A stretch of 58,859 bases of DNA, counting the filler, from Jimgerdemannia flammicorona (taxonomy: Eukaryota): NCBI GenBank assembly GCA_003990765.1. It is 3 parts of 3 records of this genome, joined end to end, with 100 filler letters (N's around TTAATTAATTAA, not from the genome) between each part and the next. Parts side by side here need not be neighbours in the genome. Positions count along the whole stretch, not along the records: positions 39,311 to 58,859 come from RBNJ01001914.1; 2 more parts are not named here. One strand, given 5' to 3'. A program made the translations under genes and the position numbers. Of the stretch, positions 7,991-57,672 are shown piece after piece (position 1 is the stretch's first letter; each line of letters starts with the position of its first letter). The notes beneath the pieces were generated by a model. The model did no database searches, was not told the DNA's origin, and saw only the letters and a program-made list of their open reading frames with translations.

Positions 7991-8036
7991 AAGTTTTCAA
8001 AAGACTTGACCATTTGGCTCAAGAACCCAGCTATCT

Positions 8037-11000
8037 ATAGTAGAGAACTTAACAGGACCAAGTCAGCAACCAAACCAGGGGCAGCAACAGCCCTCCTCAG
8101 CAGAAAAGAAAGCCCACACTCTTGTCAGAACAGTAGCCAGGACCCTATTCAACACCAGTAGCCAGAAAACTGAATCAGAAGAAAGAAGTGACCCAGATTA
8201 TGGTTTGACTTCAAGAGAAAGGAGACAACTCAAAGGACAACCAGAACTGCCCCTTCAGATCCAAGACTTAGGCCAAGAAGAAGAAGAGGACATTCCCGAG
8301 GAGTATCAAATCCTTATCCATAGGAAGAACTCAGACAGAAGTGACTACATAACTACTGTTGTTACTTGAGTCACTCCACTAGACCAGGTATACTTTGAAA
8401 CATCAGAAGGAGAAGAGGACTACCATCCATATCAACCAGAGCAAGATGATGATTGGGGATCAGACCATCAAAGAGACGAATTCAACCTATACTATTATCC
8501 AGACAGCGACACAAACCCACAACAAGGTGAACAAGACCTCACTACTTCACAACAACAAGGGGCAGATGAACTCACTATCAGTTATATCAGTCCACTCCCA
8601 CCATCAGTTGCTCAAACTTCAGTACCCTGGTCACTCATATCTCACCACTATCACCAGTCAATCAGAAGATCTCCACCACTACCCAGGACTTCAACCCCAG
8701 CATTAATTAGAAGAGCCAGATTACCCTCACCCTCACCAAAACACCGCCCTCTGCCAGCACCACTAGATCATCAAGTACTAGCACCACCACCTTTCCCATC
8801 ACCCTGAGGATCCGCCAGATCCCCTACTCCTGAACAATACTCAGATAGTGAAGATGAGCCAGACATGAGCTACCTTCAGAAGTTCCATGGTGCAGACAAT
8901 GAAGACATCAAGGAATTCTTTGGAGAAATTGAAGTTCAAGCAGCTGCCAAACAATGAGATGCTGCAAGAAAACTCAGAATTGTGGAGTCACTCCTGAGAG
9001 GACCAGCCCTACAGAGGTATAATCAAGCCAAGTAAGCCGGAGGAGGAATCCATGCAGAGGAACTGAATGATAGCCTTCAACCTGATAGAAACCATGTAGC
9101 AAGGTACATAATTCACAAAGCCTGGCTCCATGCCCAGTTCAATGGATTCAAGTACCAATAAGAAGTACAGGAGGCTTTGACCTATATGAGCCAAGCTGCC
9201 AATGAAACTCCCAAGAGTTTCTACCATCGGATTCAAGCTCAAATGATCAAGGCAAACCTTCAACCAGCAGTCCAACTAGCTCTAGCTTCAACTACCTTCC
9301 TCAATGGCTTATACCCAGAACTTTGAAGGCAAGTTATCAGGATGGGATATCGAAACATTGAACAGCAAGTTGCTGGAGCACAAGGATGTTGGGAAGCAGA
9401 TTATAAACCGGTACAACAAGTACAAGGCTATCCTGAGCCAATCTGAGCTGAAACTCCAAGGACCTGAGGAACAACCATGGAGCAAGAGAACGCCTTCCTC
9501 AGAGCCCAAATAGCCAACTATGAGAACAGACCAGCACCCACAAATCTGACTCCATTCAGGAAACCACAGTAGCAGCCACCATCAAGAGTTCAAGAAGACC
9601 CCATGACAATGCTCACCAAGCAAATGAAGGACCTGGCCATCGCAGTTGCCTAGCTGAAGAACCGAGGTAGAAGACAACAAGACTACCATCATGATAACAG
9701 ACCAGACTACCGGCAACAAGATAAAAGAGGTCCTGCTCCCACACTACCAGCTGCAACTACAGTCTCATCAGCGACTGGTTCCTATGGTCCCACCTACTTC
9801 AACTGTGGAAATCAAGGCCACATCCAGAGGAATTGTCCAAGGAACCAATCCACCCAGTCCAATGACAGAAATGTCAACCTCTTTCAGGTAGATGAAGAGA
9901 CTCAGGAAATGAAAGAAGAAGCAGCCTGGCTCCATGGTCAAGAAGATGACATCTATCCATACTTCGAGGCTTTTCCATCTAAGGTGACATGGGAAGCTGC
10001 CCCTGCAGAGACCAGAGGATGAGGAAGACCACAAAGGAACCCCCCACCTCAACTGCCAGTAACAATATCCACAGGCAAGCATCTGCAATATGACCATTCT
10101 TCTTCAGATACTCTATAAGAACAGGAGAAGCAAGTTAGAAGAGATACTCCTGAACCAGAAGCTGGACCATCTAGGATAACCCCCAGCTCTACCCTGCCAG
10201 ACCTTGAAGAAGATAAGCATATGAACATAGAATCTTCAGCTGACAAAATGCCCATCAGGAATGAGAGACTACACTCCAAGGGACCAAGACACCGAAGAAG
10301 CAGCAAGCCCCATGCAGCAGCCTCACTTTGGGAACATATCCGCCTACAGAATGCTGGTCTTACAGTTGAGCAAGTCCTCAAGAATGCACCAGAGGTCAGG
10401 CGAAAATTCCTGAAAGAAGCCAAGAAAGATACCAAGAGACTTCCAGTCCAAGGACCACATACTCAAGAACCTAGCACTATCCACATAGCCTATGAGAGCC
10501 AGCGATATGAACATCAATTTACAAGACTCACCAATGGAAAAGTGCATGGTGAAAATGCCAGAATTCTCGTCAATACTGGAGCAGCAGTATGCATCATCAC
10601 CCAAAGGATTTTGGAGTGAATTGGATGGGAAATAGATGAAGGAACCAAAGCAAGAGTTATCATGGCCAACGGATCAGCTTCTACACCCCTTGGACTTGTC
10701 AGAGACATCCCCATTCAAGTCGGAAAGACCTGCCTCAATGTACCCAAAGCCATTGTAACCCCCACAACCTCCTATGACCTGATTCTGGGAACTGACTGGT
10801 TAAGCCGAGTCAGAGCTAATGTAGATATTAAGAAACAACTCCTGGTCTTCTCCATTCATGGACAGAAGTACAAGGTGCCCATTGACTTGAAAGGATTATC
10901 CAAAAAGATGAATCAAGCCTCAGAAACAGAATGGCAAGGATATGGTAACACCCCCATTACTACTGAGGATGAAAGTGAGGCCAATTTCCTACAAGAACTA

Positions 11001-14000
11001 GGAAGTGATTTCAATGCCCCAAGGGACCAAGAAAGTGAACAAGAAGACTCTTTCATTGGAGTTATTGGTGTCGAAGGTCTGGAAGAAAGCATTGATAGAG
11101 CCATTAATGCAAGGGCAGCACTTGAGTCTGCAGGACCATCTGCTCAACCACCATTACCACTGGTAGAAAATCAGATCATGCGAGCCTTTCGTCAAGGCAT
11201 ATGTGAATATTTTATCAGCTTCCACTCACCAAGAGATGATTGCAGCAATTGCCGAATCCTGGATCTCAAGAAGGTTCCAATGCCAGAAATTGATGATAAG
11301 GACAAATTGAAGCAAGCACCTTCCCACAGTCGAATACAACCTCCAACCCCGAAGACCTTCAAGAAGACCTATAAGGGAGGACAGAAGATCCTCGCCCACC
11401 AAACATTCAAGTCCCTTACTATCGAAAGAGAAAGAAACAGCTCTTACACTATCACCTGGGCCCTCCAGATCACACAGCCCACCTATGACAAGTATCGGAA
11501 GAGATTCCCTACCAGTAGGGAAGTCAAACAGCGAAATAAAGACTTTGTCAAGAAGGGACATTGTGATTGCAGAAAGACCTTTACCTGCCACTGGTATGAA
11601 CATCGAGATGTTCACCTCAGCAAAGATATCTACAAGAGCCGAGTCTAGAGAAAGGATTCCACTCTGCAAGAACCTCGAATTCACTGGGCCTGTTGGAAGT
11701 GCAAAGAAATCAACCATGAAGGAGATTGCAAGATCAAGAGCAAGACCTCTATCTGGGACCTACCATTGGAAGTTCTTGCCATCATTTACTGGTACTGTCG
11801 CCCTCATCAAGAAAAAGAAGGTATCAATCTTGCCTTCATCCTTATGGAAGCTCTGGACCCTCTAGGAAAGACTGGATTCAATTACACAAGAAACTCCAAG
11901 ACAGGAGCTCACTGGCCTTTCTTCAAACTGGAGTGCATGAACTTCTCACCTATAATGGCAACAGCTGAAGCACTATTTCTCAAAGCTGAACCAATTATCC
12001 AGGTCAAGCTGCTTTCACCCTGAGTACAGCCACCTCTTGCACAAATAGAAGGATCAGTTGGTTATAACCTCTGCCTCCCCTACCAAGCAAGAATCCAACC
12101 CAGAAGTACCAGGACTTTTGATCTACAGATCACACTTGCTATACCACCTGGGCATTATAGACAATTGGCCTCAAGATCCTCATTGGCAACCAAAGGAGTC
12201 ACAGTAGAAGGAGGAGTCATCAATCAGGACTACCGAGGTCTCTTGAAGGCCATTATCTGCAATTCTAGTAGAACCAGCTGATTCTTCAGCCCTATGGAAG
12301 CCATCTGCCAAATCCTATTTATCAAGACATCACAGCCGACTATCCAAGAGGTAGACCAACTAGAAAATACCAACAGAGGACAAGGAGGCTTTGGAAGCAC
12401 CAATAGAAATCTACGGACACTACCTATCGAGGTTCATTTAGCAACAGTTACTCAATTCTGACAAATGAGACCCCACATCTACCACCCAATCTGAGCAAGA
12501 GAAGACATCCTCCTGCAGCCCTACCAGCAAAAAGGCCTAAATGTGCACCTACCAGTAGAAGCAAACAACTTGATATTTGCACCATCACTGGAGCTTCAAA
12601 AGGAATGCTACATCCTCCTGGCTGAAGAACAAGTTCATGACCAGATATCACCGATCCACATCTCTATCAGAAACTTGGGCTTCAAAGTGATAACCATCCC
12701 CAAGGGAACAACACTGGGATATTTCGAACCACTGATAGACACCTATAAGGAAGAAGTCTTTGAATTCTTGGGAAATGGCAAGCCCTCTCCGGTGAGACTG
12801 ACGGTACCAGGGAGGAAGACTCAGCAAATTCAGCAATCAAAGCCATCAACATCGAGACAACTCTAACCAAGGACTAGCAACAACAGATACAGGAGTTGAT
12901 AGAGGAGTACAAAGATATATTTACCACCACATATGTATGATAACTTCCCACCATATCAATATGGAGAACACCCTATACATACTGGAGATGCAAGACCAAT
13001 CTGACAACAACCCTACCAAACTCCACATCATCTGATTGAATTTGAACAACAACACATAGATGAAATGCTATGAAATGGAGTCATCAGACCATCATCAAGC
13101 CCCTGGGCTTCACCAGCAATCATAGTACCAAAGAAAGGAGGATGGAGATTAGTCGTGGATTTCAGAAAACTCAACAAAGTCACCACAGAAGATGCCTACC
13201 CACTGCCAAGAATTGATGACCTCATCAATGCCCTTGGAAAAGCCAAATACATGACCACTACTGACCAGTTCCAAGGATTCCAAATAATACCCATTGCCAA
13301 AGGAGATATCTGCAAGATGGCCTTCATCACCAGATGAGGACAGTACGAATATCTACGAATGCCCTTTGGACTCTGCAATGCACCTGCCTCATTCCAACAA
13401 ATGATGAACTATGTCTACTGGGATCTCATTGGAAGAAATGTACTAATGTACATAGATGATGTAATCATCTACTCTGAGACATTCAAGCAGCATTTGCAAG
13501 ACCTCCGCAAAGTATTCAATACCATTCAAAATTCAGGACTCAGACTCAATGTCAAGAAGTGCTTCTTCGGAAAACATCAAGTCAAATATCTGAGATATGT
13601 TGTCTCAGCTCAAAGAATACATGCCGACCCCTGCAAGGTGGAGAAAGTCAAGAACTACCCAACCCTGACCTCAGCAAAGGAGACCCTATCTTTCCTTATG
13701 CTGGCATCCTACTATCGATAATTCATCCCAAGGTTTTCAGATAAGGCAGCACCTCTCCGAGATATCTCCAAGAAGGACCAACCATTCTACTGGAAAGAAG
13801 AACAACAAAAGTCATTCGACCTACTCAAGAAGGCCCTTACTGAAGCCCCTGTCCTGGTGTGACCAGACTTTGGCAAACCATTCATCCTGACAACTGATGC
13901 CTCAGCCTTAGGACTTGGATCAATTCTATCTCAGCAAGATGACCAGAAGAGGGAGTATGTTATCGAATATGCTAGCAAGGCCACAAATGAAACACAAGCA

Positions 14001-14309
14001 AACTATGGAGCCACTAAGTTGGAATGCCTAGCAGTAGTTTGGGCTGTGGACCACTTCTGACACTATCTCTTGGGAAAGAGATTTGCTCTCATCACTGACC
14101 ATTAAGCTCTACAATGGTTGTTCAACAAGCCGGAGCCCTCAGGAATCTTCACTAGATGGATCATGTCTCTGCAAGAATATCAGTTCACTATTGTCTACAA
14201 GAAAGGTGCTAAGAATTCCAATGTCGATACCCTGTCAAGAATCCCGTGAAACCAACAAGAAGGGAAGGAACCCCCACAAGAGAAGGCTGCTTCCCGCTCA
14301 CCCAAATGA
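8037..14309 (+). pseudogene. single-frame gag-protease-dUTPase-RT-RNase H polyprotein of element A (many in-frame stops)
   Basis: ORF fragments 10221, 10662, 11766, 12543, 13155 and 13359 share one frame. Capsid-like KFHGADNEDIKEFF at 8865; knuckle (C>Y)FNCGNQGHIQRNC ~9796; protease ILV(D>N)TGA; RT MPFGLCNAPASFQ..YIDD; RNase H LTTDASALGLG..KLECLAVVWAV. The start at 8037 is inferred (ATA from ATG). Confidence 0.9.
11990..12405 (+). pseudogene. dut: dUTPase domain of element A
   Basis: Motifs GSVGY(N)L, SRSSLA, GGVI(N)QDYRG, AICQ and RGQGGFGST, in the polyprotein frame. Confidence 0.9.
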
Positions 14310-15515
14310 ACCAAGAATTGCACCTCGCCCTCACCTGGAGTCTGCACCATAGAAGCTTCAAGAAAGGAATCCAACCAGCTCACAAGTTATTTATCCAAAG
14401 GAATTTCAAGAAATTCCAAGAAGGTGATGGCAAACTTTGGAGAGTAGAAGGAGAGCAGTACACCCGAGTTCCAAGAGAGGAAGAAATATTGAAGATCCTG
14501 ACAACAAATCATGACCAAAATGCATACTGAGAAATTGGCACCACTATTGCAAGAATCAAGAAGCAATACTGGTGGCCCAAGATGAGAAAACAAATTTCAA
14601 TGCACATTCAACAATGTGATACCTGCCAAAGATACTGACAAAAGCCTACTGACAAAGTACCATTAATACCGATTGCAGCACCAGCTGGAGCCTTTCAAAG
14701 ACTGGGAATAGATATTATTGGACCCCTACCAGTAACCAGCCGAGGAAGATGCTACATCCTCACTATCGAAGACCACCTGACAAAATGGTCTGAAGCCTTT
14801 GCCATTGAGACTGCTGATGCCCAGATAATTATTGGGATCCTGTATAATGAAATTTTCAGCTACCATGGTGTGCCCAAGGAAATCATTACAGACCAAGGCT
14901 GAGAATTCATCAACCAAGCCATGAAGACCTTTGCGAGCAACTTCAAGATCAAGCTACGACTAATAACAGCCTACTACCCATAGGCAAATGGACTCACTGA
15001 ACGAATGAACCAGACCATCAAGCGAGGTCTCAGTAGAACTGGAGATCAACTAAACTGGGATATCTATCTACCGGCAATTCTGTTCAGCATCCATACCTCT
15101 AAGGCAACCACTACCCAACAGACCCCCTTCTATTTGGTGTATACAAGATCCTACTAAACCAGTCCAGCTAGATCTGTCAAAACGAGTCACAGAAGAGATC
15201 ACCCGGTTATACAACATATGCCAGCAAGCATGAGGATTTATCACCAAGGCACAAGAATGACAAAAGAGGTACTACAACTGCAAAGCCAACCTCAAACCCC
15301 TGCTCATTGGACAAAAGGTTCTGGTGTACCATACCATCATAGAAGGAAATTGGAGTGCCAAGCTTGAACCAAAATGGGAAGGCCCCTATCTCATACACCA
15401 AGTATTCTCATACCACACTTATCAACTCAAGACCTTGGATGGAGTTATACTCAAGACCAAGATACACCATAACCGCATAAGACTCTACTACTCAAGAGAA
15501 GCAAAACACATTTGA
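14306..15515 (+). pseudogene. integrase of element A (HHCC zinc domain, rve core, GPY/F), separate ORF with its own ATG
   Basis: MNQELHL...; YWWPKM..CDTCQ; GIDIIGPLP; IITDQG; NGLTERMN; KLEPKWEGPY. In the -1 frame relative to RT-RH; one decay frameshift near 15147. Confidence 0.9.
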
Positions 15516-15830
15516 ACAATCCTGTTCACTCTGTCTGTGTCATCTCCACCGGAGATATGACAGATGTTTCATTTGGAACTCAAGAAAGCCAACAACATTG
15601 GAACCAGACTCAAGCCCATCCACATGACAGACATTGTTACTAAGAAATTGCCTCAGATTACAAGAAATACTATTTCCGATAGGTTCGAACCCCCAGCCGC
15701 AACTATGGGAGCCCTCGCCCTAGACAAGGATGGCCAGTCCTCACAAATGCGCTGACATTCTGCTCATCCCTGGAGTAAAGACCACCCAACCCTGTGTAAC
15801 CCTCACCACCAAGGACAGCTCTAATTTTGC

Positions 15831-15840
15831 AAGGGACAGA
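15831..15840 (+). other. polypurine tract of element A
   Basis: AAGGGACAGA directly before the 3' LTR TG. Confidence 0.65.
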
Positions 15841-18042
15841 TGTGACGTATGCAATTGACAATGGAGTACCAGTGACTGCTAAGATCAGATGACATAATGG
15901 CATGACAGTCGAATAGACAGCCTGACCCATTAGGTGATCACCCCAAAAGGAGCAATGATAATCCAAGCCAAAAGGAAGACTATGTTATTTAAAGAACCAT
16001 ACTCCACCTCAGGAATCAGTACCAAAGAACAAGTACCCACCACACAATGCCTCCAATCCACCACCCCAACCAGATCTCCTACTGCTCTTCCCCCTTGCCT
16101 GGCCCAAAGACTTTAATCCTTGAAGCAATCAAGAAGGCTATTTGGCACCTAGACACCTCTGAACATCTGAACTTCTACACCGAGGATCTTGGACACTTCA
16201 TCAATTACTGGTACATAATGACCCAACAGCTCAAAGATACCACTGAACAAATGACCCTCTGGCATGATTACGAAATTGGACACCACCTTCATAATGAAAC
16301 CCAAGAAGGTGACCAGGAAGACCTCATTGCCGAAATTTTAACCACCAGCTGGCTAATCAAGAGAGCCCTCCATATCCACCAAATCTTCTGCCATATTCCC
16401 TGGGCTATAGCACACTTACAAGGAGTGACTGCTGGAAGTCTTGCCCATCTCTCAACTGAAGATGCAGACTGGATAGAATCAGAAGTAGCCGGCTCTATTG
16501 GTAGTAACTGGGTCTCTATAGGAAGCCAACAAACCAAGCCCACTCAACCAGGCTTTCACACCACTCCACTCCGAGACAACCACCAAGGTCACCTAATGAG
16601 TCTCATGGAAATCTTCAAAGGACTACCCATTACCATTACAACACCTGTTGGAGCAACCCCAACTACTCACCACCCTGTCAGCTACAATTCGCACCTCATC
16701 ATTTGGGAACCAAATCAAGAAGTTCCAGAAGTCCCTACCAATACAGAAACTGGAGGATCTGAGGAAGAAGAAGAGGAGGAACAAAGAATCTACCAATTCT
16801 CTGGCTGCCTTCAAGCAGTCCAAGGGTTGGAGAATGTCATCGAAGATGATTGGCCACAATTCTACCCCCTCATCTCCTGGCCGGTGCTCCCACCCTTTGA
16901 AGAACGAAATGAAGAAGTCACAACCCAGCAAGATGATTGGTTCACTGACAAAGGGTACTTTACCATTCAGTGATCCAATGTCTGTTTCCTCAGTCCGGTT
17001 AGCCAATGTTTATCAGCAAGTCAGTAATATCTGTTTCCAGTAATATCACCCCCAACAACCAAATCCAGCACTGGCACTCGCCTTATCTCAATTCAGTGAT
17101 CTAACGTCCGTTTCCTCAGTCTGGTTAGCCAATGTTTGTCAGCAAGTCAGTAACATCCATTTTCAGCAATACCACCCACAACATCCATATCCAGTACTAG
17201 CACTCATCTTATCCCAATTCGGTGCAAACAACTGTTGCACCCATATTCAGCAATTAAACCACCACAACATAGTATACCTTAGCCCCCCTCCCCATAGCTA
17301 GCAAAATTGTATAAATAACCCTATATCTTAGAGTGAATAAACCTCAGTCAGTTTGTATTTAAAAGTAAAAAAAGGGATTACAGAGAAACCTCACTGCCTC
17401 CAAGAGACTGGATAAATTCTGAGAACAAGATAACTAGAGCAACAATCACTCGAGGTTTGAGTTAAAGAATTTTCTCTTGCCATGGAAAAATGTTCAAGAT
17501 TTGCTGCTAAGGAAAGCCACATGAAAAGCCATTCAGTTTAGTTTAAAGACCTGTCGCTAAGGAAAGCTGTATGAAAAAACTGTTCAGTTCAGTTTAAAGA
17601 CCCGCCGCTAAAGGAAAGCTGCACAAAAACCGCCAACCACCACCGAGATCCTGCCAACCCAACTGTCATGCATTCGGAACCAACTGCCATTCGAGGTTCA
17701 AGACCGCACATTCGAGACCCACCATTCAAGTGTTAAGACCCCAGCCAAGGAACTCAAGAATACTAGAACAAGACCGCCAGTGAACAATTGACTGCCAGAA
17801 CCCACCCTCAAGTTAAGAACGAACATTCGACTGAACCGTTGATCCAAATAATTCCCTACTGCACCACGAACTGTATACATTCAAGAAGTAATTTGCCCTG
17901 AGCCTCCATCATATGAATCAAATGCACCAATCACATGACTATCTACCCGTAACCATCACGAATGCACTTATATCCATCGCATGCACCAAGTGGCACATTG
18001 AGCTGTGCTTGAAGCAACTAGAGATACAAACCAGATGCCATA
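15841..18042 (+). repeat. 3' LTR of element A (~2202 bp)
   Basis: Starts TGTGACG and ends GCCATA (CA>TA); followed by TSD ATAT. Confidence 0.95.
16047..16973 (+). CDS. 308-aa open ORF inside the 3' LTR; unknown accessory protein with an acidic, disordered C-terminal half
   Basis: Uninterrupted ORF; segment KRALHIHQIF..AIAHLQGVT matches ORF3 of element B (AKRIHKLF..ALAHL*GVT). Confidence 0.7.
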   Translation: MPPIHHPNQISYCSSPLPGPKTLILEAIKKAIWHLDTSEHLNFYTEDLGHFINYWYIMTQQLKDTTEQMTLWHDYEIGHHLHNETQEGDQEDLIAEILTTSWLIKRALHIHQIFCHIPWAIAHLQGVTAGSLAHLSTEDADWIESEVAGSIGSNWVSIGSQQTKPTQPGFHTTPLRDNHQGHLMSLMEIFKGLPITITTPVGATPTTHHPVSYNSHLIIWEPNQEVPEVPTNTETGGSEEEEEEEQRIYQFSGCLQAVQGLENVIEDDWPQFYPLISWPVLPPFEERNEEVTTQQDDWFTDKGYFTIQ

Positions 18043-19558: not shown

Positions 19559-19658
19559 NNNNNNNNNNNNNNNNNNNNNNNNNNNNNNNNNNNNNNNNNN
19601 NNTTAATTAATTAANNNNNNNNNNNNNNNNNNNNNNNNNNNNNNNNNNNNNNNNNNNN
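19559..19658. other. artificial contig spacer
   Basis: 100 nt of N with central TTAATTAATTAA (stops in all six frames). Confidence 0.98.
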
Positions 19659-39210: not shown

Positions 39211-39310
39211 NNNNNNNNNNNNNNNNNNNNNNNNNNNNNNNNNNNNNNNNNNNNTTAATTAATTAANNNNNNNNNNNNNNNNNNNNNNNNNNNNNNNNNN
39301 NNNNNNNNNN
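39211..39310. other. artificial contig spacer
   Basis: 100 nt of N with central TTAATTAATTAA. Confidence 0.98.
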
Positions 39311-39760
39311 CCCATCCCGACATCACCCGAAAAGCAGTCACCTACGCCAGAACCGCGCTCGCCGGGAAGCTCGCCAAAGCCAGAGGGCCCCACCACAGGC
39401 ACCGAGGACCTGCAGGTAACCTACACTGAGCACTTGACGCCCAAGGTCGGCCGACTCCCTACGTAGCCCGAGACACACCGAGACAGCACCTTGTTGACGA
39501 CGGCAAAAGGAAGAAGGCGCCGCACCAAAACGGATGCACTCCAGACGCAGCCGAAGACACCAGAAACCGCGAAAAAGTGGAGAAGACACCGATCGGACAC
39601 CGATAAAGGGGCAACTCATCACCATTGCCCTCCTCCCACCATGCCCATGTAGGCACAGCAAACCAACCCGAGGTAGAGGGGGTAATAATAGGGGAAAGGG
39701 GACTCGGAAGGTTGCCTACCAAACCTTGTGACCGGTAAGGTAGCGGAGAAAGGAGAACGT

Positions 39761-42700
39761 GCTTTTTGTTGTCTGCCAGTCCACTGGAACTTGGTATCCT
39801 TCTTGTTGAGTTCATAGATTGGATCTGCGATGTTGGAGAATCCTCTAATGAATCTGCGATAGTAGGAGGCAAGTCCCATGAAGGCTTGGGCTTCTGTGAT
39901 GGTAGTGGGCCTTGGGTATGCTACTACCACTTGTATTTTGAGAGGGTCCATGTGTGTTCCATCTCAATTGATGATATGGCCAAGATAGGAGATCTTGATT
40001 TCCGCAAACTTGCACTTCTTGGGTTTGATATAAAGGCCATGTTGTCTTAGTCTCTCCATTATCTACTGTATGTGCTGCAGATATTCCTCAGGTGTCTTGC
40101 TGTAGATGATTACATCATTGATATAGACCATCATCCATCTTCCCATATTATAGTGAAAGATTTTGTTCATCATTTGCTGAAAGCTTGCTGGTGCATTGCA
40201 TATTCCGAATGGCATTCATAGGTAGATGTAGGTTCCATCTGAAGTGATGAAGGCTGACTTTTCACTTGCCACCTCTGTGAGTCCGATTTGGTGGAATCCT
40301 GAGTATAAGTCCAAGGTGCTGTAGTACTGTGCTTTGTCTCCCAGTGTTATAAGAATGTTGCTGATGAGCAGCAGTGGTTGGCAATCCTTCTTGGTGACTG
40401 CATTGAGCTTTCTGTAGTCAACACAGAGCCTTGGGGCAAATTCTCCAGGTTTGCTTCCTTTTTTCAGAGCTAGTACAACTGGTGAAGACCAGGGGCTGCT
40501 GGCTTCTTTGATGATACCGGCTTCTTTCATCTGCTTAATTTCTTCTCTGAGCCATTCTCGGTAGGCTGGCAGGACAGGTCTTGCCTTCTGATAAATTGGT
40601 TCGGTGTCTCCAGTATCTACCTCATGATAGTAGTGTGGGGTCTTTCCCTTAATATTCTTGAAATCCATGGCAAGGACATCCTCAAATTTGTGGAGTATTT
40701 TTTTGAGTTCCTCCTTGAGTGGGAATTCGTCTTCAATGGTGTAACTGTGCTTGCTCATGTTTTCCTCCTTCTTATGCTCGAGTTCAGTAATCTTGGTGCT
40801 GGCGAATACTCTTCTTCCTGTGGATCCGAATCCTTTCTTTCCTCTTTTCGTTTCCTCCAGATTCTTGACTTCTATGATTCTTGGCTGTATGATTGGGAAG
40901 ATCAACATCTGTGCCAATCGGTCCTTCTTCTTGACTGGGAATGGAATTGTAGGATTGTGGTTCCTAGCAATGAGTAGAATTTCTCCCATATAGTCTGAAT
41001 CAATAACTCCTCCTTCGATTGTGATTTCACTTCTAGCCAGGCTGCTTCTTGTCTTGAGAATCCCGACATGATCCTTTGGGATGGTCATCTCTAGTCCAGT
41101 TGTGAGTAGGGTGGTTGTCTGGGGTTTGAGTACAGTTTCTTCTACTATAGCGATGTCCATTCCGGCTGCATTTTCTGACTTGTATTCTGGCAAGACTGCA
41201 TCAGGGTGGATCTTTCGAATCTTGACTTTGATTTCTTCTTCATCATCACTGTCCTCCAGGAGGGCTGGTGGTTCATCGTCTTCCTTCTTCTCTTCCTCCC
41301 TGATCTGTTTTTCAAGAGCTTTCTGCCTCCTTTCCTGGTAGATCTTCTCGGTTCTGATGGTGCACTGGTAGCAATCGTTGACATGCTCCATACAGTATAT
41401 CTTGATTCCATGAGGACAGACTCCTTGTGGGGCATAGCCTTCTGCAATCTTCTTGCACCATTTTTCTTCACTCATCCATCCGACTTTCTTCTTCTTTGAG
41501 GTAGTTACCATATAAGCTTCCTCTTGCTCACTCTCTTCTTCCTCCATATCGGGCAGGACTCCTTTGTTGATGTTGATGGGAATTCATATCTTCTGTCCCT
41601 AGTAGGTGATCTGCATCTTCTGAGCATTGAGGTCGATTACCACCTTGGCTTTGTGAAGCCATTGATTGCCGATGAGGATGTCATAGTTGGTGGCATTGGT
41701 TACGATTACATCTACTGGGATTATTGCTCCTCCAATCTTGATGGGAATATCTCAGATCTTTCCCAGAGGTGTGGCTCTTGTGCCATCAGCTGTGACAAAT
41801 ACTAGCTTAGTTGCTTCTTCCACATCCCAACCTAGGCAGTCTGCTGCCTTCTTACTGAGGAGACATCCTTCTGCTCCTGTGTCAATGATGGCTTCAAAGA
41901 CTCGATCCTCAATTTGGTATTTTGCATAAGCAGAGGTTTTGAGATTATCCTCACTTTCTTCTCCTGAGTCCTCTTGAATATTATTGGCCTCAGTTATCTT
42001 CCATCCTTGTTCCTTGGTTGTTTCGGCAAGTCCAAACCTCATTTGCTGTCTGAATGTTGGGATTTCTACAAGCTGACCAAAGGTTGCATTGACCTTTTAT
42101 TGGCTGAGATCCTTGAAGATATCATACTTGAAGGTCTTGGTCTTGTGAAGCTTCTTTTCTTTTTCTCCTTCACTGGCTGGAGTGGTTCCTCAGATGATAT
42201 CTTGAACTGCTTGCTCCAGCTCGATATCCTGGTCCATCTCTTCAGCTTGACTTTCTGTGGCAGTTTCCATCCGCTTTTCCACTGGGTTCTTCTTGGGTCT
42301 TTCTGGTGGTCTCTTGTAGGGTTCTTTGTGAGCATCCTTCTTGGTGGTCTGAACAGGATAGGTCTCCCATTTCTCTTCATCGGATTCTCAAATTTCTTCA
42401 AAGGTGATTGTATTGGCCTGCTCCTTGTTTCATGTGGCATTGCTTGGTTGGGCCTTACATTTGGTTTCACTCATACATTCATAGAAGTAGTGGCCTTCTT
42501 CTCCACAGCTGTAGCAGGTATCTTTCTTCTTGTCTGAGGTGGCAGTGAACTTCTGAACAGGGCAGCAATCTCTTCCTCGGATTTCCTTTACCACATCTCT
42601 CAGGTGGGCAGTCATTTCAGCAAACCTTTTGGCAAGTTCCTCCATAGGGTCACTGTTCTTTTGCTGCTCTGTAGCTTTTGGCTGAGGTGTGTTTCGATTG

Positions 42701-43323
42701 ATCATTGTGGTGGGGATCACACAGGTTGCCTTGGGTGCCTCAATTCTGACTCCTGTAACTCTCTCCATTGTATGGTCTTGTGGGTGTCTGGCTATCCAGT
42801 ATCGCTGAGCATAGGTGACCTTTTGTGGCAGATCCAGAATCACTGGTGATGAGCAGATGGCCATGGCTATTTCTGGATGGACTCCTTTCATGAAGGTTGC
42901 TTTAGCTACTTGATCTCGGATAGCAGCAGCATAATCTGCAAGGATTATCTGATATCAAATTCTGGTATAGAATGTGTTTGGATCCTTGCTCATTCCTTGG
43001 CATATTGTGTTGAGCTGATCCTTGCTCATTCCTTGGCATATTGTATTGAGCTGATCCTTCAGAGCTTGCTTGATCTCGTCTGTGCAATATATATTTCGGA
43101 GCCAGGTCTTCTGTGCTGTCAGTATGGCATCTGCATCATTTCCTGCATGGGTTGTAGCTGTGAATGCTGCTCTGGCAGGGCCTCATAGGCTGAAGGGCAT
43201 GAGGGCTACTTGCTGTGCTGCTGTCAGAGTCCTTACAGTGGCATACTGCTTGAAATCGTCAATGAAGATGATGATTGATTCATCTGAGATATATCCATGG
43301 AATATTGGCAGTCTCATATCCAT
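39761..43323 (-). pseudogene. gag-protease-Cys motif-dUTPase-RT polyprotein of element C, one frame
   Basis: MDMRLPIFHGY; CYSCGEEGHYFYEC knuckle; AIIDTGA; NAAGMDI..TRSSLA..GGVIDSDYMGEI..DRLAQ..RGKKGFGSTG; LCVDYRKLN..LDLYSGFHQI. Fragments 42891, 42042, 41547 and 39951 are all in frame; 36-bp in-frame duplication at ~42981-43052. Confidence 0.92.
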
Positions 43324-43437
43324 CTTGTCTGGGTATTGGGGCTCAGTTTGTATGGTTGTTCGAGTAGTGGTGGTTGTTCATTGTTCAGCTTGAAAGTGAG
43401 AGATTCATCTTGAATCACCAGCCAATGGGCACCAAGT

Positions 43438-50235: not shown

Positions 50236-50301
50236 CTTATATCATGAAGTAATCAGTTCTTTATTTGAAAGATACATCACTTGAAATTCACACATAAATA
50301 T

Positions 50302-50738
50302 TGTAACATAGCGGATGCTAAGGTGGGCAAGTACATCAGATTTCTTTATCTTGAATTCTTGTCTTCTTGACTCCTAGAGTCAGTAGTTCCTTGAGGCCAA
50401 ATGTGTTCTAAGAGGTAATCCCGAAAGTCCCTTTATTGGTATACTTGTTCTTCTTCTAACACTGTTGATCTGAGGTTTATTCACTCGAAGATACTGGGTT
50501 ATTTATACAAGTTTGCTAGCTATGAGATGGCTACTGAGTTACGTGGCTAAGTTATGAGTCATTTAGACAATGTCAAAATGCTATACTAAATCAGGGTGTT
50601 CGATTTGGACAATGTCTAGAAATTTAGACAATATCAAAATCAGCGACTGCTAACTATAAAACTATACTACTTTGGGAATGGGTGCGATCAAGTATCTATT
50701 CCCTATTTCCATCTTCCTAATTCGGCTATACTATCACA
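50302..50738 (-). repeat. 3' LTR of element B (437 bp)
   Basis: TG..CA termini; matches 56492-56886; preceded on the minus strand by a PPT at ~50740-50748. Confidence 0.95.
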
Positions 50739-50787
50739 ACTTCCTCCTGAATAGATGGTCTCGTCTCTGAGACATCTATTCAAACTC

Positions 50788-51237
50788 CTATGCTTCGACT
50801 GTCTGTATGGTTTTGTACTGTTCAATCTGTTGCATGACTGTCTCCCAATGATGTCTCCTTATTTTATCGAAGTCGGTAGGGGTTACTCCTCACAGGTGGG
50901 CTAATGCTGATTTATCATCTTGAAATAGCTTGTGGATCCTTTTGGCAATAGTGATCTGTGAGTAGGAGAGTTGGCACTCTGCGATCCAGTCTTCTTTGGT
51001 CTTTGCTGAATCCTGGTTGAGCACCCATCTAAGCTTGAAGTACTCTTGGAACTCTGCCCGATATTGGTAGGCACTAAAATGTGAGATCTGAGAGAGATGA
51101 GTCTGCACAATACTCTGAATATCCTTATAGTATGCCTCTATGGTCAGAGGCTTGGTGGTGTGCCATTGTCTTTCAATAGCCCTTTGTGTAGTACTAGTGA
51201 TCTTGAGTGCCACTGCAGTGCTCCAGTTATTGGCCAT
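50788..51237 (-). pseudogene. ORF3 accessory gene of element B (env position), one internal TGA (probably CGA)
   Basis: MANNWSTAVALK...TIAKRIHKLFQDDKSALAHL*GVTPTDFDKIRRHHWETVMQQIE; homologous to the LTR ORF of element A. Confidence 0.7.
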
Positions 51238-52420
51238 GGTACTTCTTGAGTCAGTTTTGGTAAATGGTAGTGGGGATTATTGTGCCTGAGGGCTTTCGTA
51301 GTTGGAAAGTGGTCCCTTTTATATCTTGCACCAGGTAAGGTCCTTCCCATTTAGGCTCCAGTTTTCGCGACCAAGAAGCTTCTACTATATTCCAATATAC
51401 CAGAACTTCATCTCCTATCTTGATAATCTCCAGGGGCTTGTGGGTTTTTTCTGCATTGCTCCATTATAGTGCCTGTGCCTTGATTATATAATCTTCTGCC
51501 TTTTTCCTAATTTGATGCAATCTCTGTATCTCCGTATCCACATGCTTCCAGATTGTATCATTACCTGCTGACAAACTTCCACCAGAACCTTCTTTACTGA
51601 ATAGCATTTCTCGTGGTGTAAAATGGGTACTTTGTGATCATATATCCAATAGAGTAGATAATGCTATTGGTAGATAGTGGTCCCAGTTTCCATATTCATC
51701 ACAGATCTTGGCAATGATGTTCTTGAGGGTCTTATTGATTCTTTCTGCTTGCCTGTTTCCTTGTGGGTGATAGGCTGTGGTTTTGATGTACTGGATCTTG
51801 TACTTCTTGTAAAGAACCTCATGGAACTGGTTGACGAATTCTGTTCCTCTGTCTGTAGTAACTTGCTTTGGGGTCTTGAATCGGCAGATGATTTCTCTAT
51901 GAAAGAAATCGGCAATTGACTGTGCATTGGCTTCCTTGAGGGGTCTGGCCTCTACCTATTTTGTAAATAGATCTACTATTACAATGACATATCGGTTGCC
52001 AGTCAATGTCAGGGATAGAGGGCCAATTACATCCATTGTGATGTGGGCAAATGGTATTGGTTTGATGTCTGCTGATCCAGGGGTTTGATCCTGTTGGTCT
52101 TGTTTCTGTTTCTGGCATTTGTCACAGGTTCTGACAAATTGTCTGATATCTTCTTCCATTCCAGCCCACCACATGGTTCTTCTCACTTTGTTATATATAT
52201 TTGTTCCTCCTACATGACCTTGTTCATGTACCTCTTTTATCACTTGGTTCTTCCAGTGCTCAGGGATGACTAATTGTTGTCCTTTCTTGAGTATTTCTCT
52301 ATCAGTTTTGAATTGTTTCCATGTCCGATTAATAATTGTTTTTGTCCATTCTTCTAGATGCAGGGGCATCTTTTGCTGCCCCAGGTAGCTGATGATTCCA
52401 TAGTACAGCTCTTTATTCAT
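51227..52420 (-). pseudogene. integrase of element B, separate ORF with its own ATG
   Basis: MNKELYYGIISYL..HEQGHVG..WWAGM..CDKCQ; TMDVIGPL; KLEPKWEGPY; +1 frame relative to RNase H. Confidence 0.9.
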
Positions 52421-55400
52421 GGTGATTTTGTAGGGGTGGGGTCCTTCGGGGTGTCTGTGAGAGGGTGTCAGCATTGGCATTGATTTTTCCAGGGCGGTGG
52501 ATGATTGTGGCATCATATGCTTGCAGCTTCATGATCCATCGGGCATAGATTCCTTTGGGCTCACTGGTAGTGAGCAACCAAGTGAGTGCTGAGTAGTCTG
52601 TCTGAATGGTGAAGTGCCTTTCAGTCAGATAGTAGTGAAACTTCTCTACAGCCCAGATGACTGTAAGGCATTCCAGCTTATAAGACTCATAGGACTGCTC
52701 TGCCCCACAAGTACCTTGGCTGAGATAGGCTACCACGTATTCAATGCCATTCTTCTTTTGTGTAAAGACAGCTCCAAGTCCCATTGCACTGACATCCATC
52801 TGCAGAATAAACTCTTGAGTCCAGTCAGGTCTTCTCAGGATTGGAGCCTGGGTCAATCTGGTCTTAAGCTCATCAAAGGCTAGTTGCTGCTGCTGAGTCT
52901 ACTGGAACTGACCTCTTTTCTGAACAGATCATAGATAGGACTGGCAATGTGGGAGAACCTTCTGATAAATCTTCTGTAGTAGGATGCAAGTCCCATGAAG
53001 GCTCGGGCTTCAGTGGTACTGGTAGGTACTGGGTATGCTGCTACTGCCTTGATCATTGTAGGGTCTGTATGTATTCCTTCATGGTTGATGATGTGTCCAA
53101 GGTATGCAATTTCTTCTTCTCCAAACTTGCATTTCTTAGGCTTGATATAGAGGCCATGTTTGTGAAGCCTTCTGAGGATTTCCTCAATGTAGCCCAAGTG
53201 TTCTTTGGCTGTTTGGCTGAAGATGATCACATAATCTACATATACCATCATCCATTTCTCCATAACATCTCTGAAGATACTGTTCATCATTCGCTGGAAG
53301 CTTGCTGGTACATTGCACATTCCAAAGGGCATGCGGAGATAGACATAGGTTCTATCGGGGGTAATGAAGGCTGATCTTTTGCTGGCTTCAGGTGTAAGGC
53401 CGATTTGGTAGAATCCTGAGAACAGATCCAGGGTGGTGTAGAATCGTGATTCATTCCCCAGTATGATAAGAATATCGCCAATGTTCGGCAATGGTTGTCT
53501 GTCCTTTTCTGTGACCTCGTTGAGTCTTCTATAGTCTGTACAGAGTCTTGGTGTAAATTCTCCTGGTTGGCTTCCCTTCTTTGATGCAAGGATGATGGGA
53601 GAGGACCAAGGGCTGCTGGCTTCTTCAATGATGCCAGATTCCTCCATCTCCTTGATTTCTGTCTTGAGCCATTCTCTGTATGCCAGTGGAATGGGGCAGG
53701 CCTTCTGATAGATTGGCTTTGCATCTCCAGTATTGATGTCATGACAATACAAGGGTTTCTTGGTCTTGATGTCCTTGAAATCCGTGGCCAGTATATCCTT
53801 GAATGTATGCAAGAGGCTCTGTAATTCTTCCCTGAGGGGGTAGTTTCTTCCGATTGTGTAGGTGTGTTTGTCTTGGCTTTCCTCCTTCTTGTGCTCCAAT
53901 TCTGTAATTTTAGTTACTGTGAGGACTCCTCTTCCTGTAGAGCCGAATCCAGCTCTTCCTCATTGAGTTTGCCTGATGTTTGCGACCTCCTTGATTCTTG
54001 GATTAAGGACAGGTAGGATGAGCATTTGCGCCAGCCGATCCTTCTTTCTTACTTCGAATGGGATTGTTGGGTTGTGGTTCCTGGTGAGGAGAAGGATTTC
54101 TCCAGTATAATCTGAATCGATGACTCCTCCTTCTATAGATATTTTGCTCTTTGCCAGGCTGCTCCTTGTCTTGAGGATTCCAACATGGTTTGGCAGGATG
54201 GCTACTTCAATTCCTGTTCCTAGAATGGTGGTGGTCTGCAGTTCAAGTATTGTGTGTGTTGTAGTGGATAGGTCCATTTCTGCTGCATTCTCCGATTTGT
54301 ATTGTGGCATGACTGCATTAGGGTAGATTCTTCATATCTTGACTGTGATGTCTTCTTCATCATCGCTGTCATCCAATAGTTATGGTGGTCCATCTTCTGG
54401 TTCCTCCTGGTTCTTCTTTGGCTTGTTGGTGATCTTCTTCACCTCAATGATACAGGAGTAGCAGCAATCCAAGTGCTGGGCACAGTACATTCTTTCACCA
54501 TAGGGGCACCTTCCTAGTGGGGCATATCCATCTGCGATTCTTGTATACCATTCTTCCTCTGTCAATTGCTTGTCTTTTCCTTTCTTTATAGTAAACATAT
54601 AGGCTTCTTCTTCTTGGTCTTCCTCCATCTTGGGGCGGACTCCTTTGTGGACATTGATGGGAATTCTGATCTTCTTTCCCTGGTAAATGATCTGCATCTT
54701 CTGTGCACTGAGGTCAATCATTGCCTTGGCTTTATGAAGCCATTGATTGCCGATGAGGATATCATAGTTGGTTGCATTGGTGACGATGACATCCACAGGG
54801 ATAGTGGCCTCTCTGAACTTGATTGGTATATCTCAGATTTTTCCCAAGGGTGTTGCTTGTGTCCCATCAGCTGTGACAAACACCAATTTGGTGGCTTCTT
54901 CTATCTCCCAACCTAGGCGGTCTACTGCTTTCTTGGTGATGAGACATCCTCCTGCTCCTGTATCAATGATGGCTTCAAAGACCCAGTCCTTGATCTGGCA
55001 GGTAGCATAGGCTGATGTTTTCCGGTTATCTTCACTCTCTTCATCTGAATCTTCTTGAGCATTGTTGGCTTCAATTATTCTGTAATCTTGGTCTTTGCCG
55101 ATGTCTGAGATTCCTGTCCTCATTTGTTGTCTGAATGTTAGGATTTCAGCCAGCTGGCCAAAGGTTGCATTGACCTTTTGGTCCTTGAGGTCCTTGAAGA
55201 TGTCATACTTGAAGGTCTTGCTCTTGTGCAGTTTCTGCTCCTTCTTTCCTTTGCTTGATGGGGTAGTATTTCGAATAATATCTTCTACTGCTTGCTCCAG
55301 TTCAGCATCTTGTTCCAGCTCCATATCTTGATCAGCTTTGCTCTGTTGGTTCTCTTTTTCGATGACTGTTTCTGGTTGTCTTATTTGTGTCTGGGCCTTC

Positions 55401-56392
55401 TTAGGAGGTCTCCCTGGAGATCTTTTGTAGGGACTGGATCAGACATCCTTCTTGCCTGAGGTGGCAGGATAAGCTTCCCATTCCTCCCTCTCTTCCTCAG
55501 ATTCTCTAATCTCCTTGAAGGTGATAGTGTTTGCCTGCTCATGGTTTCTGATTGCATTGCTTGGATTGGCCTTTTGCTTGGTTTCTGTCATGCATTTGGA
55601 GGCATAGTGGCCTTCTTCTCTGTAATTGTAGCATGTTATTGATCATCTTGCATTTGTAGTGGCAAACTTCTGTACTGGCTTCTTCTTGAATTCCTTGACT
55701 ACATCACTGAGGTGTGCTATCATTTCCACGAACTGCTTGGCCAGTTCCTTCATTGGGTCGACCCTTCTCTGGTCTTGTGGTTGCAGTTGTGTATTCTGGT
55801 TGACTATGGTAGCCAGGATTGTATTGGTGACTCTTGGTGCTTGTTTGATTTTTACTCCGGTTATCCTTTCCATTGTATGGCCTTGAGGGTGTCTGGCAGT
55901 CCAGTATCTTTGGGCATAGGTAACCTTCTGTCCCAGGTCCAGTGGTGTTGGGGTAGATCGAATGGCTAAAGCAATTTCTTGGTGAATGCCTTTCATAAAG
56001 ATATTCTCAGCCACTTGGTCTTGAACTGCATCGGGGTAGTCAGCAAGGACTATTTGATGTTGGATTCTTGTATAGAATGTATTTGGGTCTTCAGACATTC
56101 CTTGGCAGATAGTATTCAGTTGATCTTTGAGTGCCTGTTTGATTTCGTCTGTATAGTAGGTTGCTTGGAGCCAGGTCTTGAAGGCCAGGATTCTTGCTGG
56201 ATCATCAGCTCCTTGTACATTAGCTGTAGTAAATACGGTTCTTGCTGGGCCTCGGAGGCTCACAGGGAGTAGGGCTACTTGTTGTGCTGCCGATAAGGTT
56301 CTTACAGCAGCATACTGCTCGAAATCATCAATGAAGGTGATGATTGATTCATCCGAAGTATATCCATGGAATATGGGTGGTCTCATATCCAT
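52413..56392 (-). pseudogene. gag-protease-Cys motif-dUTPase-RT-RNase H polyprotein of element B
   Basis: Fragments 56392, 55324, 54796, 54310 and 53899 are in one frame. AIIDTGAG; dUTPase 53930-54340 (TRSSLA, GGVIDSDYTGEI, GFGSTG); RT MPFGMCN..YVD(Y); RNase H FILQMDVS..KLECLTVIWAV; one decay frameshift near 52910. Confidence 0.93.
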
Positions 56393-56472
56393 TCTGTCTG
56401 ATTGTGTTGTGTGGGTTCTCGTTGTGGTTGTTCATTGTTCAGCTTGAAAGTGAGGGATTCATCTTGAATCAC

Positions 56473-56488
56473 CAGCCAATGGACACCA
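56473..56488 (-). other. candidate primer-binding site of element B (same position in C at ~43419-43434)
   Basis: TGGTG(T/C)CCATTGGCTG 3 nt inside the 5' LTR; cognate tRNA not identified. Confidence 0.5.
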
Positions 56489-56491
56489 AGT

Positions 56492-56886
56492 TGTAATGTA
56501 GCAGATGCTAAGGTGGGCAAGTACGTCAGATTTCTTTATCTTGAATTCTTGTCTTCTTGACTCCCAGAGTCAGTAGTTCCTTGAGGTCAAATGTGTTTTA
56601 AGAGATAATCCTGAAAGTCCCTTTATTGGTATACTTGTTCATTTTCTAACACTTTTGATCTGAGGTTTATTCACTCAAAGATACTGGGTTATTTATACAA
56701 GTTTGCTAGCTATGAGATAGCTACTGAGTTATGTGGCTAAGTTATGAGTCATTTAGACAATTTCTAGAAATTTAGACAATGTCAAAATTGGCAACTACTA
56801 ACTATAAAACTATACTACTTTGGGAATGGGTGTGATCAAATGTCTATTCCCTATTTCCTTCTTTCTAATTTGGCTATACCATCACA
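56492..56886 (-). repeat. 5' LTR of element B (395 bp; 42 bp shorter than the 3' LTR)
   Basis: TG..CA termini; the deletion falls between TT(A/G)GACAAT direct repeats. Confidence 0.95.
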
Positions 56887-57173
56887 ATATATAGAAATTT
56901 CCACCTAACTGAAATTCATACATATATAACTGATATATATTATCAAAATTCTCATACATATATATAACCCTGGTCCTGATCTTGGTCTCCACTATGTCTG
57001 GCTATAGTAGTAGCTATCTAGTAAGTATTAATATATAATATCTTTTTTAGCAGAAGATCAGAGATCAATAGATTGAGTTATTGATAGATTTTGAGAAGAG
57101 TATGAAATATTTTCCTATATCTTCTATAATTGTTATAACTTATATAAGATTGATCTTTAGTTTTTAGATAGAT

Positions 57174-57672
57174 AGTAGCTTGGGTAGTAGCTTGGGCTTA
57201 GGCAGCAGCTTGGGCTTGGACAGTAGCTTGGGCTTAAACAGTGGCTTAGGCTTGGACAGCAGCTTGGACTTAGGTTGCAGCTTGGGCTTGGGTAGCTGCT
57301 TGGGCTTGAGTAGTAACTTGGGTTTCAGCAGTAACTTGGGCTTGAGTGGCAGCTTGGGATTAGGCAGTGGCTTGGGCTTAGGTAGCAGCTTAGACTTAGA
57401 TAGTGATGAGGGCTTGGATAGTAGCTTGGGCTAGAGCAGTGGCTTGGGTTTGGGTAGTGGCTTGGGTGATAGCTTTGGCTTGAGTGATAGCTTGGGCTTA
57501 GGCAGTAGCTTGGACTTAGATGGTAGCTTGGGTAGTAGTAGTAGCTTGGGCTTTGGTGGTGGCTTGGGCTTAAGCAACAGCTTGAGCTTAGATAGTGGCT
57601 TTGGCTTGGGTGGGGGCTTGGGCTAGGATGGTGGTGGCTTAGACTTGGGTGGTAGCTTGGGCTTAGGTAGTA
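57174..57672 (-). repeat. 18-bp minisatellite (GGCAGCGGCTTGGGCTTG-like), probably a decayed Pro-rich coding tract
   Basis: More than 20 imperfect copies built from 6-bp GGCTTG/GGCAGC subunits. Confidence 0.8.

Follow-up and report, generated by a model that had tools for sequence, protein, structure and literature searches.

In a few described systems, translation of a second open reading frame (ORF) is coupled to termination of the first. The non-long terminal repeat (non-LTR) retrotransposon SART1 couples its ORF1 and ORF2 at UAAUG (Kojima et al., 2005, cited in PMC10275272), the hypovirus CHV1 shows coupled termination/reinitiation at the same pentanucleotide (PMC2699510), and caliciviruses and influenza B virus use termination-reinitiation that depends on TURBS, a ribosome-binding site located upstream of the termination point (PMC6393290; PMC3035654; PMC2793014), the upstream element of rabbit haemorrhagic disease virus (RHDV) being described as rather unstructured (PMC6393290). 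LTR retrotransposons are associated with recoding of another kind, such as the +1 frameshift between GAG3 and POL3 of Ty3 and other gag/pol recoding (PMC5911963; PMC2582038), and some fungal Gypsy elements, for example PosPlaTy3-5 of Postia placenta, carry a dUTPase between protease (PR) and reverse transcriptase (RT) (PMC2864245). Here we describe a decayed Ty3/gypsy element, element B, in a 58,859-nt stretch of DNA from the fungus Jimgerdemannia flammicorona (assembly GCA_003990765.1), referred to below as the window. The integrase (IN) of this element and of its relatives is encoded apart from RNase H (RH), and very probably this is a feature of the lineage.

UAAUG and AUGA are the classical overlaps of termination-reinitiation, and in fungal victoriviruses coupled translation at AUGA depends on an upstream pseudoknot. 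The integrase of LTR retroelements and retroviruses is taken to be cut by protease from the Pol polyprotein, and the known recoding sites, whether frameshift or readthrough, separate gag, pro and pol from one another. Searches of open-access full texts yielded no account of LTR elements that split RH from IN or that use reinitiation, and a record in print elsewhere is possible. The terms 'frameshift' and 'separate ORF' do not occur in the main text of the paper on the Postia element (PMC2864245; the element structures are in a supplement outside this count), and 'integrase' does not occur in the available text of the frameshifting review by Atkins et al.

The RNase H/integrase junction in element B and its close relatives

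Element B occupies the minus strand (Table 1), along which Pfam matches follow in series as Retrotrans_gag, Asp_protease, dUTPase, RVT_1, RT_RNaseH, Integrase_H2C2 and rve; the element reads gag, zinc knuckle, PR, dUTPase, RT and RH, and then, apart, IN. The PR-RT-RH-IN order on a single strand, together with the flanking repeats, places it in Ty3/gypsy (Metaviridae). The repeats are two direct pairs, D2 (50301-50574/56491-56764, 94% identity) and D3 (50603-50739/56751-56887, 90% identity). Judged by its reading frames, the copy is clearly dead. A much better preserved contig, L001 (6479 nt, metagenomic; 83% nucleotide identity to B over the coding region), lacks 13 of the in-frame stops of B in a codon-wise comparison, and 9 of these 13 are CGA or CGG to TGA changes, which we read as the mark of CpG deamination. 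The IN region of B is interrupted by stops at 51958-51956 (TAG, common to B and L001), 51640-51638, 51466-51464, 51253-51251 and 51229-51227. With the element dead and its private stops so many, decay was at first the default explanation of the break between RH and IN.

Read on the minus strand, the RH frame ends ...CTA CAA AAT CAC CAT GAA TAA (L Q N H H E stop) and the IN frame runs ...ATC ACC ATG AAT AAA GAG CTG (I T M N K E L). IN is therefore +1 relative to RH, and the RH stop starts 5 nt after the A of the IN ATG (AUGAAUAA, in B as in L001). A sequence-only reading of the window had placed an RH end and an IN start at these positions, had taken MNKEL to be homologous to MNQEL in a second element of the window, element A, and had assigned offsets of +1 to B and -1 to A. 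Both ends were confirmed, the two Mets align, and reading the two junctions gave the same offsets.

Relatives of B were contigs (L numbers) and proteins (P numbers) from metagenomes or assemblies. L001, which is 98% identical to P0002, carries gag-PR-dUTPase-RT-RH as a single ORF of 1281 codons ending NHHE-TAA, followed in the +1 frame by IN, with 190 and 253 codons open and one TAG between them. RT-RH of P0002 is unbroken and terminates ...NHHE, and P0172 likewise terminates at NHHE, as B does. According to the sequence-only reading, an in-frame RH-IN fusion in other family-B copies would have spoken against a lineage feature; the outcome was the opposite, RH of L001, P0002 and P0172 ending at NHHE. 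Intact IN ORFs of 433, 415 and 447 aa, 72% identical to B IN, were found in P0001, P0162 and P0163. The longer ORFs of this group start MLTHSQG, which, when back-translated from protein, is the read expected from the +1 frame of an N-A-D-T-L-S-R coding stretch, so the group probably has the same +1 offset as B.

A MAFFT alignment of the coding regions of B and L001 contains a single frame-breaking indel, a 1-nt deletion in B near 52910; the other indels, of 3, 6 and 9 nt, are all in-frame and none lies at the RH/IN junction. Contigs of four public runs (X1-X4, one study, library kind unspecified) were also aligned to 51900-53000, and seven of them (three of X1, three of X2, one of X4) carry a T inserted behind 52907/52908. 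The private indel that the sequence-only reading had noticed in B near 52910 is thus real. RT of element B is read in the same frame as IN, and RH alone in another, because one private deletion was added to the +1 offset inherited from the ancestor. Two indels that compensate each other were considered as the source of this shared frame and rejected on the L001 alignment. For the run contigs, whose listing covers 40 of 336 base differences and leaves aside 371 pieces, no indel is listed between 52313 and 52881, and four listed contigs (X1 records 3, 4 and 5; X2 record 11) bridge 52420-52466 without gaps; run X3 has zero depth at 52381-52491. The alignments show that the RH/IN break was inherited and did not arise by private decay of B. 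The proposal that the split is a lineage feature is supported by L001, P0002, P0172, the run contigs and the diverged relatives described below, and we regard it as very probably correct; recurrence of one junction in independent copies and in diverged relatives is more than would be put down to chance.

B and L001 also have in common a TAG at a Trp codon inside IN (51956-51958, minus strand, in B; 5074-5076 in L001). The codon is TGG in P0001, and TGG was read at 51957 in 23 contigs of other copies. The sub-lineage sharing the TAG looks defective, yet it has left at least two diverged copies (B and L001).

Diverged relatives, element A and the reach of the split

The DNA loci compared at the junction were three with IN in the +1 register (B, L001 and L003), two near-identical ones in the -1 register (L002 and L004), and element A. 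L003, 51% identical, reads AUGAAUUGUGA. L002 and L004, 45% identical, have UAAUG, and their IN frame meets a stop five codons ahead of the AUG; the IN ORF of L004 is intact and 422 codons long. Counted from the A of the conserved AUG, the RH stops of all six loci start at distances from 2 nt upstream to 8 nt downstream, and in B, L001 and L003 at 5-8 nt downstream. The sequence-only reading had held that stop/start proximity and the Met, and not the frameshift register, are what is conserved. This stands for B, L001 and L003 (+1) and for L002 and L004 (-1); for A, also -1, it stands with the qualification that its AUGA is reached only if a premature TGA is read through.

Element A lies on the plus strand at about 8000-15900. 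MNQEL is encoded at 14306-14320 in the -1 frame relative to RH, and the RH-frame TGA (14307-14309) overlaps the ATG (14306-14308) as AUGA. The premature TGA upstream (Table 1) is probably the result of CpG decay, because P0179, whose RH is 90% identical to that of A, has Gln at this position, and TGA and CAA are each one CpG deamination away from CGA. P0180 (58% identical) has a similar tail of 16 aa after LSR. There are several stops inside the IN region of A, and a second frame change, back to the gag-RH frame, was observed within it at 15154-15261 (plus strand).

An exhaustive HMMER search with the N-terminus of B IN gave 150 listed representative matches. Among these, 17 cover the conserved Met, and in 11 of the 17 residue 1 aligns exactly to it. 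P0009, P0032, P0047 and P0073 are full-length integrases of 394-423 aa that start exactly on the homologous Met. In the alignment of IN N-termini the Met is present in 25 of 25 rows and is followed by Asn in 23 of 25, giving a start motif M-N-x-[E/D]-h-Y. On the RH side, 13 fragments at least 54% identical to A RH end 2-27 aa past the D-x-LSR motif; matches at most 50% identical to A run on past it, P0202 reaching the integrase zinc-finger region. The short-tail rows cluster in an RH tree (two changes; 0 of 500 shuffles as low), a result compatible with a single origin of the short tails. The same tree unites A (-1) and B/L001/L003 (+1) in one group with 93/91 support, and L004 lies outside it. 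On this tree, therefore, the register has changed at least once while the split was kept.

A search of genome contigs and viral contigs with the integrase alignment returned distant relatives only (28-35% identity), which were used as outgroups. RH and IN are fused in L006, L010 and L011. In L012, whose IN is 28% identical, they are split with an overlap of 65 nt (L012:2326-2424), IN being a +1 ORF of 508 codons whose start, I-M-N, precedes the RH stop by 62 nt; either the split arose independently here or a single copy has decayed.

Sequence thus speaks strongly for a conserved split. The copy in the window is a fossil, and the mechanism set out below is an inference. Element B is a dead copy of a Ty3/gypsy family within a wider group in which IN is a separate ORF, in the +1 or -1 register according to lineage, that starts from a conserved AUG near the RH stop; in several relatives of B both ORFs are intact. 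Another feature was seen in the AT-rich L002, at one locus: a single UGA (L002:1769-1771; UGA CUA G) is all that interrupts the frame common to gag-PR (589 codons) and RT-RH (510 codons), which we take to be a leaky readthrough context.

How the separate integrase might be expressed

Termination-coupled reinitiation is the mechanism that fits best, because it is indifferent to register and needs just the two features that are conserved, the AUG and a nearby stop; we judge its chances of being right to be about even. Ribosomes would translate gag-PR-(dUTPase)-RT-RH and terminate, and a fraction of them would restart at the adjacent AUG, which in these loci lies in UAAUG, in AUGA (conditionally, in A) or out of frame close to the stop. 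The outcome would be a free integrase in sub-stoichiometric amounts. Since gag through RH is one ORF in L001, without a gag/pol recoding site, the restart at RH/IN could be the dosage-control step of the element. Tentatively, and at a little under an even chance, we propose that the group has moved dosage control from gag/pol to the RH/IN boundary and makes free integrase by TURBS-independent reinitiation in either register (AUGA, UAAUG or AUGnnUAA).

Several observations weigh against reinitiation. UGGGA, the core of TURBS motif 1, was found in none of the six loci within 120 nt upstream of the AUG (GGGA alone occurs only in A, at -44); if reinitiation operates here, the mechanism is not of the calicivirus type. 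Minimum free energy folds were compared with those of shuffled sequences by a tool whose predictions do not extend to pseudoknots. The upstream 131 nt of four loci fold no better than shuffles (z +0.38, +1.56, -1.00 and +1.79, the -1.00 being L004) and have no common stem of the kind (motif 2*/2) that would present motif 1, and the downstream 101 nt gave z-scores that are not significant (-0.89, -0.89, -1.94 and +1.28), the extremes being L004 (-1.94; 6 of 200 shuffles as good) and A (+1.28). The AUGA of A appears only when the premature stop is ignored, and its -3 position is C. The ends of metagenomic proteins cannot be told apart, from the proteins alone, as stops or contig ends. Given the TAG that B and L001 share inside IN, at a position read as TGG in 23 contigs of other copies, their sub-lineage may have relied on integrase supplied by other copies. 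P0030, an IN fragment, has ALSR in an N-terminal extension in frame with the conserved Met (MNSETY), and the RH/IN join may differ in this relative.

Two further observations against reinitiation bear on programmed frameshifting within the RH/IN overlap. Here a slip, of +1 for B, L001 and L003 but of -1 for A, L002 and L004, would yield an RT-RH-IN fusion, as slips at gag/pol do in Ty1 and Ty3, and leave the Met a merely structural residue. A +1 shift is established at the gag/pol junction of Ty3 (PMC5911963). Upstream of the AUG, lineages of the +1 register keep 36-55 codons of the IN frame free of stops, as is needed by a +1 frameshift and not by reinitiation, and in B the third frame has three stops across the stretch where the RH and IN frames are both open. 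The RH frame of B and L001 also contains CCC CGA AGG, a plausible +1 slip site in which a run of C would permit +1 re-pairing before two Arg codons. The Arg codons CGA and AGG are slow in yeast. L002 and L004 could conceivably use A AAA UAA for a -1 slip of a single tRNA. However, no shift site is conserved across the lineages, L003 having AAC CCG TAT in place of CCC CGA. The +1 heptamers of Ty1 and Ty3, CUU-AGG-C and GCG-AGU-U, occur in none of the six loci (135 nt each, read by eye), nor was an in-phase X XXY YYZ heptamer seen by eye ahead of the AUGA of A or in the 13 nt available in L002/L004. A group that changes register between +1 and -1 would have to gain another slip site at every change, whereas its AUG and the nearby stop persist; significant stimulatory structure is lacking in the downstream folds, and an invariant Met beside the stop is left unexplained. 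We judge frameshifting to be about half as likely as reinitiation.

Translation of IN independently of upstream termination, from a spliced or subgenomic RNA, by an internal ribosome entry site or through transcriptional slippage on a homopolymer, seems improbable. An A at -3 of the conserved AUG in five of the six loci would suit it, as would the A-runs near the junction in L002/L004 (AAAAAGAAAAAUAA) and B (GGAAAAAUC), and retroviruses use spliced RNAs for downstream genes. It offers no reason for an RH stop that stays within 8 nt of the AUG in each of four lineages, and B and L001 have no close upstream AG acceptor in common, a weak GAAG/G alone being shared. A splice acceptor just upstream of the AUG was ruled out, CACAG in B being CACGG in L001. 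The listed run contigs show neither gain nor loss of a base at the junction, although contigs from a library of unknown kind are blind to events at the RNA level. Still less probable, in our view, is a break without function, that is, an ancestral indel in a family that spread non-autonomously on foreign integrase, the Met and the stop being together by coincidence. Such a history would accord with the state of B (13 private stops and one private deletion), with the TAG common to B and L001, and with the several stops and second frame change in the IN of A. Set against it is the survival of IN as an intact ORF of 394-447 codons in six or more protein clusters, only 31-72% identical to B, and in L004, since an unexpressed frame would not remain open; the Trp codon is intact in the 23 contigs of other copies; and whichever register the split takes, the stop lies next to the one homologous Met. 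The chance of the first RH-frame stop falling within -2 to +8 nt of the AUG is, by a rough reasoned estimate, about 0.05-0.1 per lineage, or about 3e-4 for three.

Other features of the window and comparison with known systems

Table 1. Positions in the window of element B, its parts and its junction, and of the junction of element A
Feature	Positions	Strand	Details
Element B, decayed Ty3/gypsy LTR retrotransposon	50301..56887	-	Pfam domains, ORF map, direct repeats
LTR remnants of element B	56491-56887 and 50301-50739		direct repeats 90-94% identical
Pfam RT_RNaseH	52413-52898	-	E 1.7e-30
Pfam Integrase_H2C2	51956-52528	-	E 5.4e-18
Pfam rve	51638-51955	-	
RNase H ORF of B	52413..52898	-	own frame; 87% identical to P0002
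IN coding region of B	51194..52420	-	ATG to terminal TAG, the latter common with L001
RH stop TAA	52413..52415	-	common to B and L001
Conserved putative IN initiator ATG (MNKEL)	52418..52420	-	A at -3 and at +4
Stretch open in both RH and IN (+1) frames of B	52413..52528	-	38 codons
CCC CGA (then AGG), RH frame	52446..52451	-	sole plausible +1 slip candidate in the overlap
Private 1-nt deletion of B	52907..52910	-	splits RT from RH
Element A junction	14229..14320	+	TLSRIP, premature TGA 14247-14249, RH-frame tail to TGA 14307-14309

An additional ORF, in a different frame, runs across the IN 3' end at 50890-51276 (minus strand) in B, where 128 codons are open. Its counterpart in L001 (L001:5795-6253) has 166 codons and an ATG in ACCATGG, 41 nt before the IN stop. 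A Pfam search with this ORF gave no match; it may be an accessory gene with an overlap-based expression of its own. Element B adjoins a tandem array (57143-57662) with a period of 18 nt and 16 registered copies of 60-73% identity, which when read on one strand encodes repeats rich in Pro, Lys and Leu. One more related element, C, lies at 39619-43400 (minus strand); it comprises gag, PR, dUTPase and RT and includes an open stretch of 455 codons at 40216-41583. Similarity ends near 39700, just short of the N runs at 39211-39310, so that C is without an RH/IN junction. The window has two pairs of 44-N runs, at 19559-19658 and 39211-39310. Between the elements are fragments of host genes with Ku and Rav1p domains (Pfam) and apparent introns.

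If integrase is indeed made by reinitiation, the group would extend to LTR elements, as their first example, a mechanism described chiefly in RNA viruses and in a single non-LTR element, and it would do so without the calicivirus motif. Its natural sequence variants would moreover bear on the requirements of a eukaryotic ribosome for restarting after an ORF of some 1400 codons. Annotation pipelines that demand a fused RT-RH-IN will score intact members of the group as broken.

Among the described systems, PosPlaTy3-5 has the PR-dUTPase-RT order that is seen in B, A, C, L001 and L003, L002 and L004 being without dUTPase. Ty3 belongs to the same superfamily, and in both cases less of a downstream enzyme would be obtained from one RNA. 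The recoding of Ty3, however, takes place between gag and pol, whereas here the break is between RH and IN, gag through RH is one ORF (L001) and no Ty1/Ty3 heptamer is present. The TURBS-dependent systems resemble the present loci in their long upstream ORF, in an out-of-frame downstream AUG that overlaps the stop or lies a few nucleotides from it, and in a rather unstructured upstream region, but motif 1 that defines them (core UGGGA, complementary to 18S rRNA, about 45-80 nt upstream) is missing from all six loci. SART1 shares an overlapping stop and start in a retroelement, with the same UAAUG as L002 and L004; it differs in being a non-LTR element whose ORF1/ORF2 junction needs a downstream RNA structure, whereas the junction described here is an RH/IN junction inside the pol of an LTR element, has no significant structure in the folds made and is known from sequence alone. 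Hypoviruses and victoriviruses are RNA viruses, and in B, L001 and L003 the stop lies instead 5-8 nt after the A of the AUG; nevertheless, the UAAUG of L002 and L004 and the AUGA of A, the latter conditional on read-through of the premature TGA, match the overlaps that these viruses use, after long ORFs and in fungal hosts.

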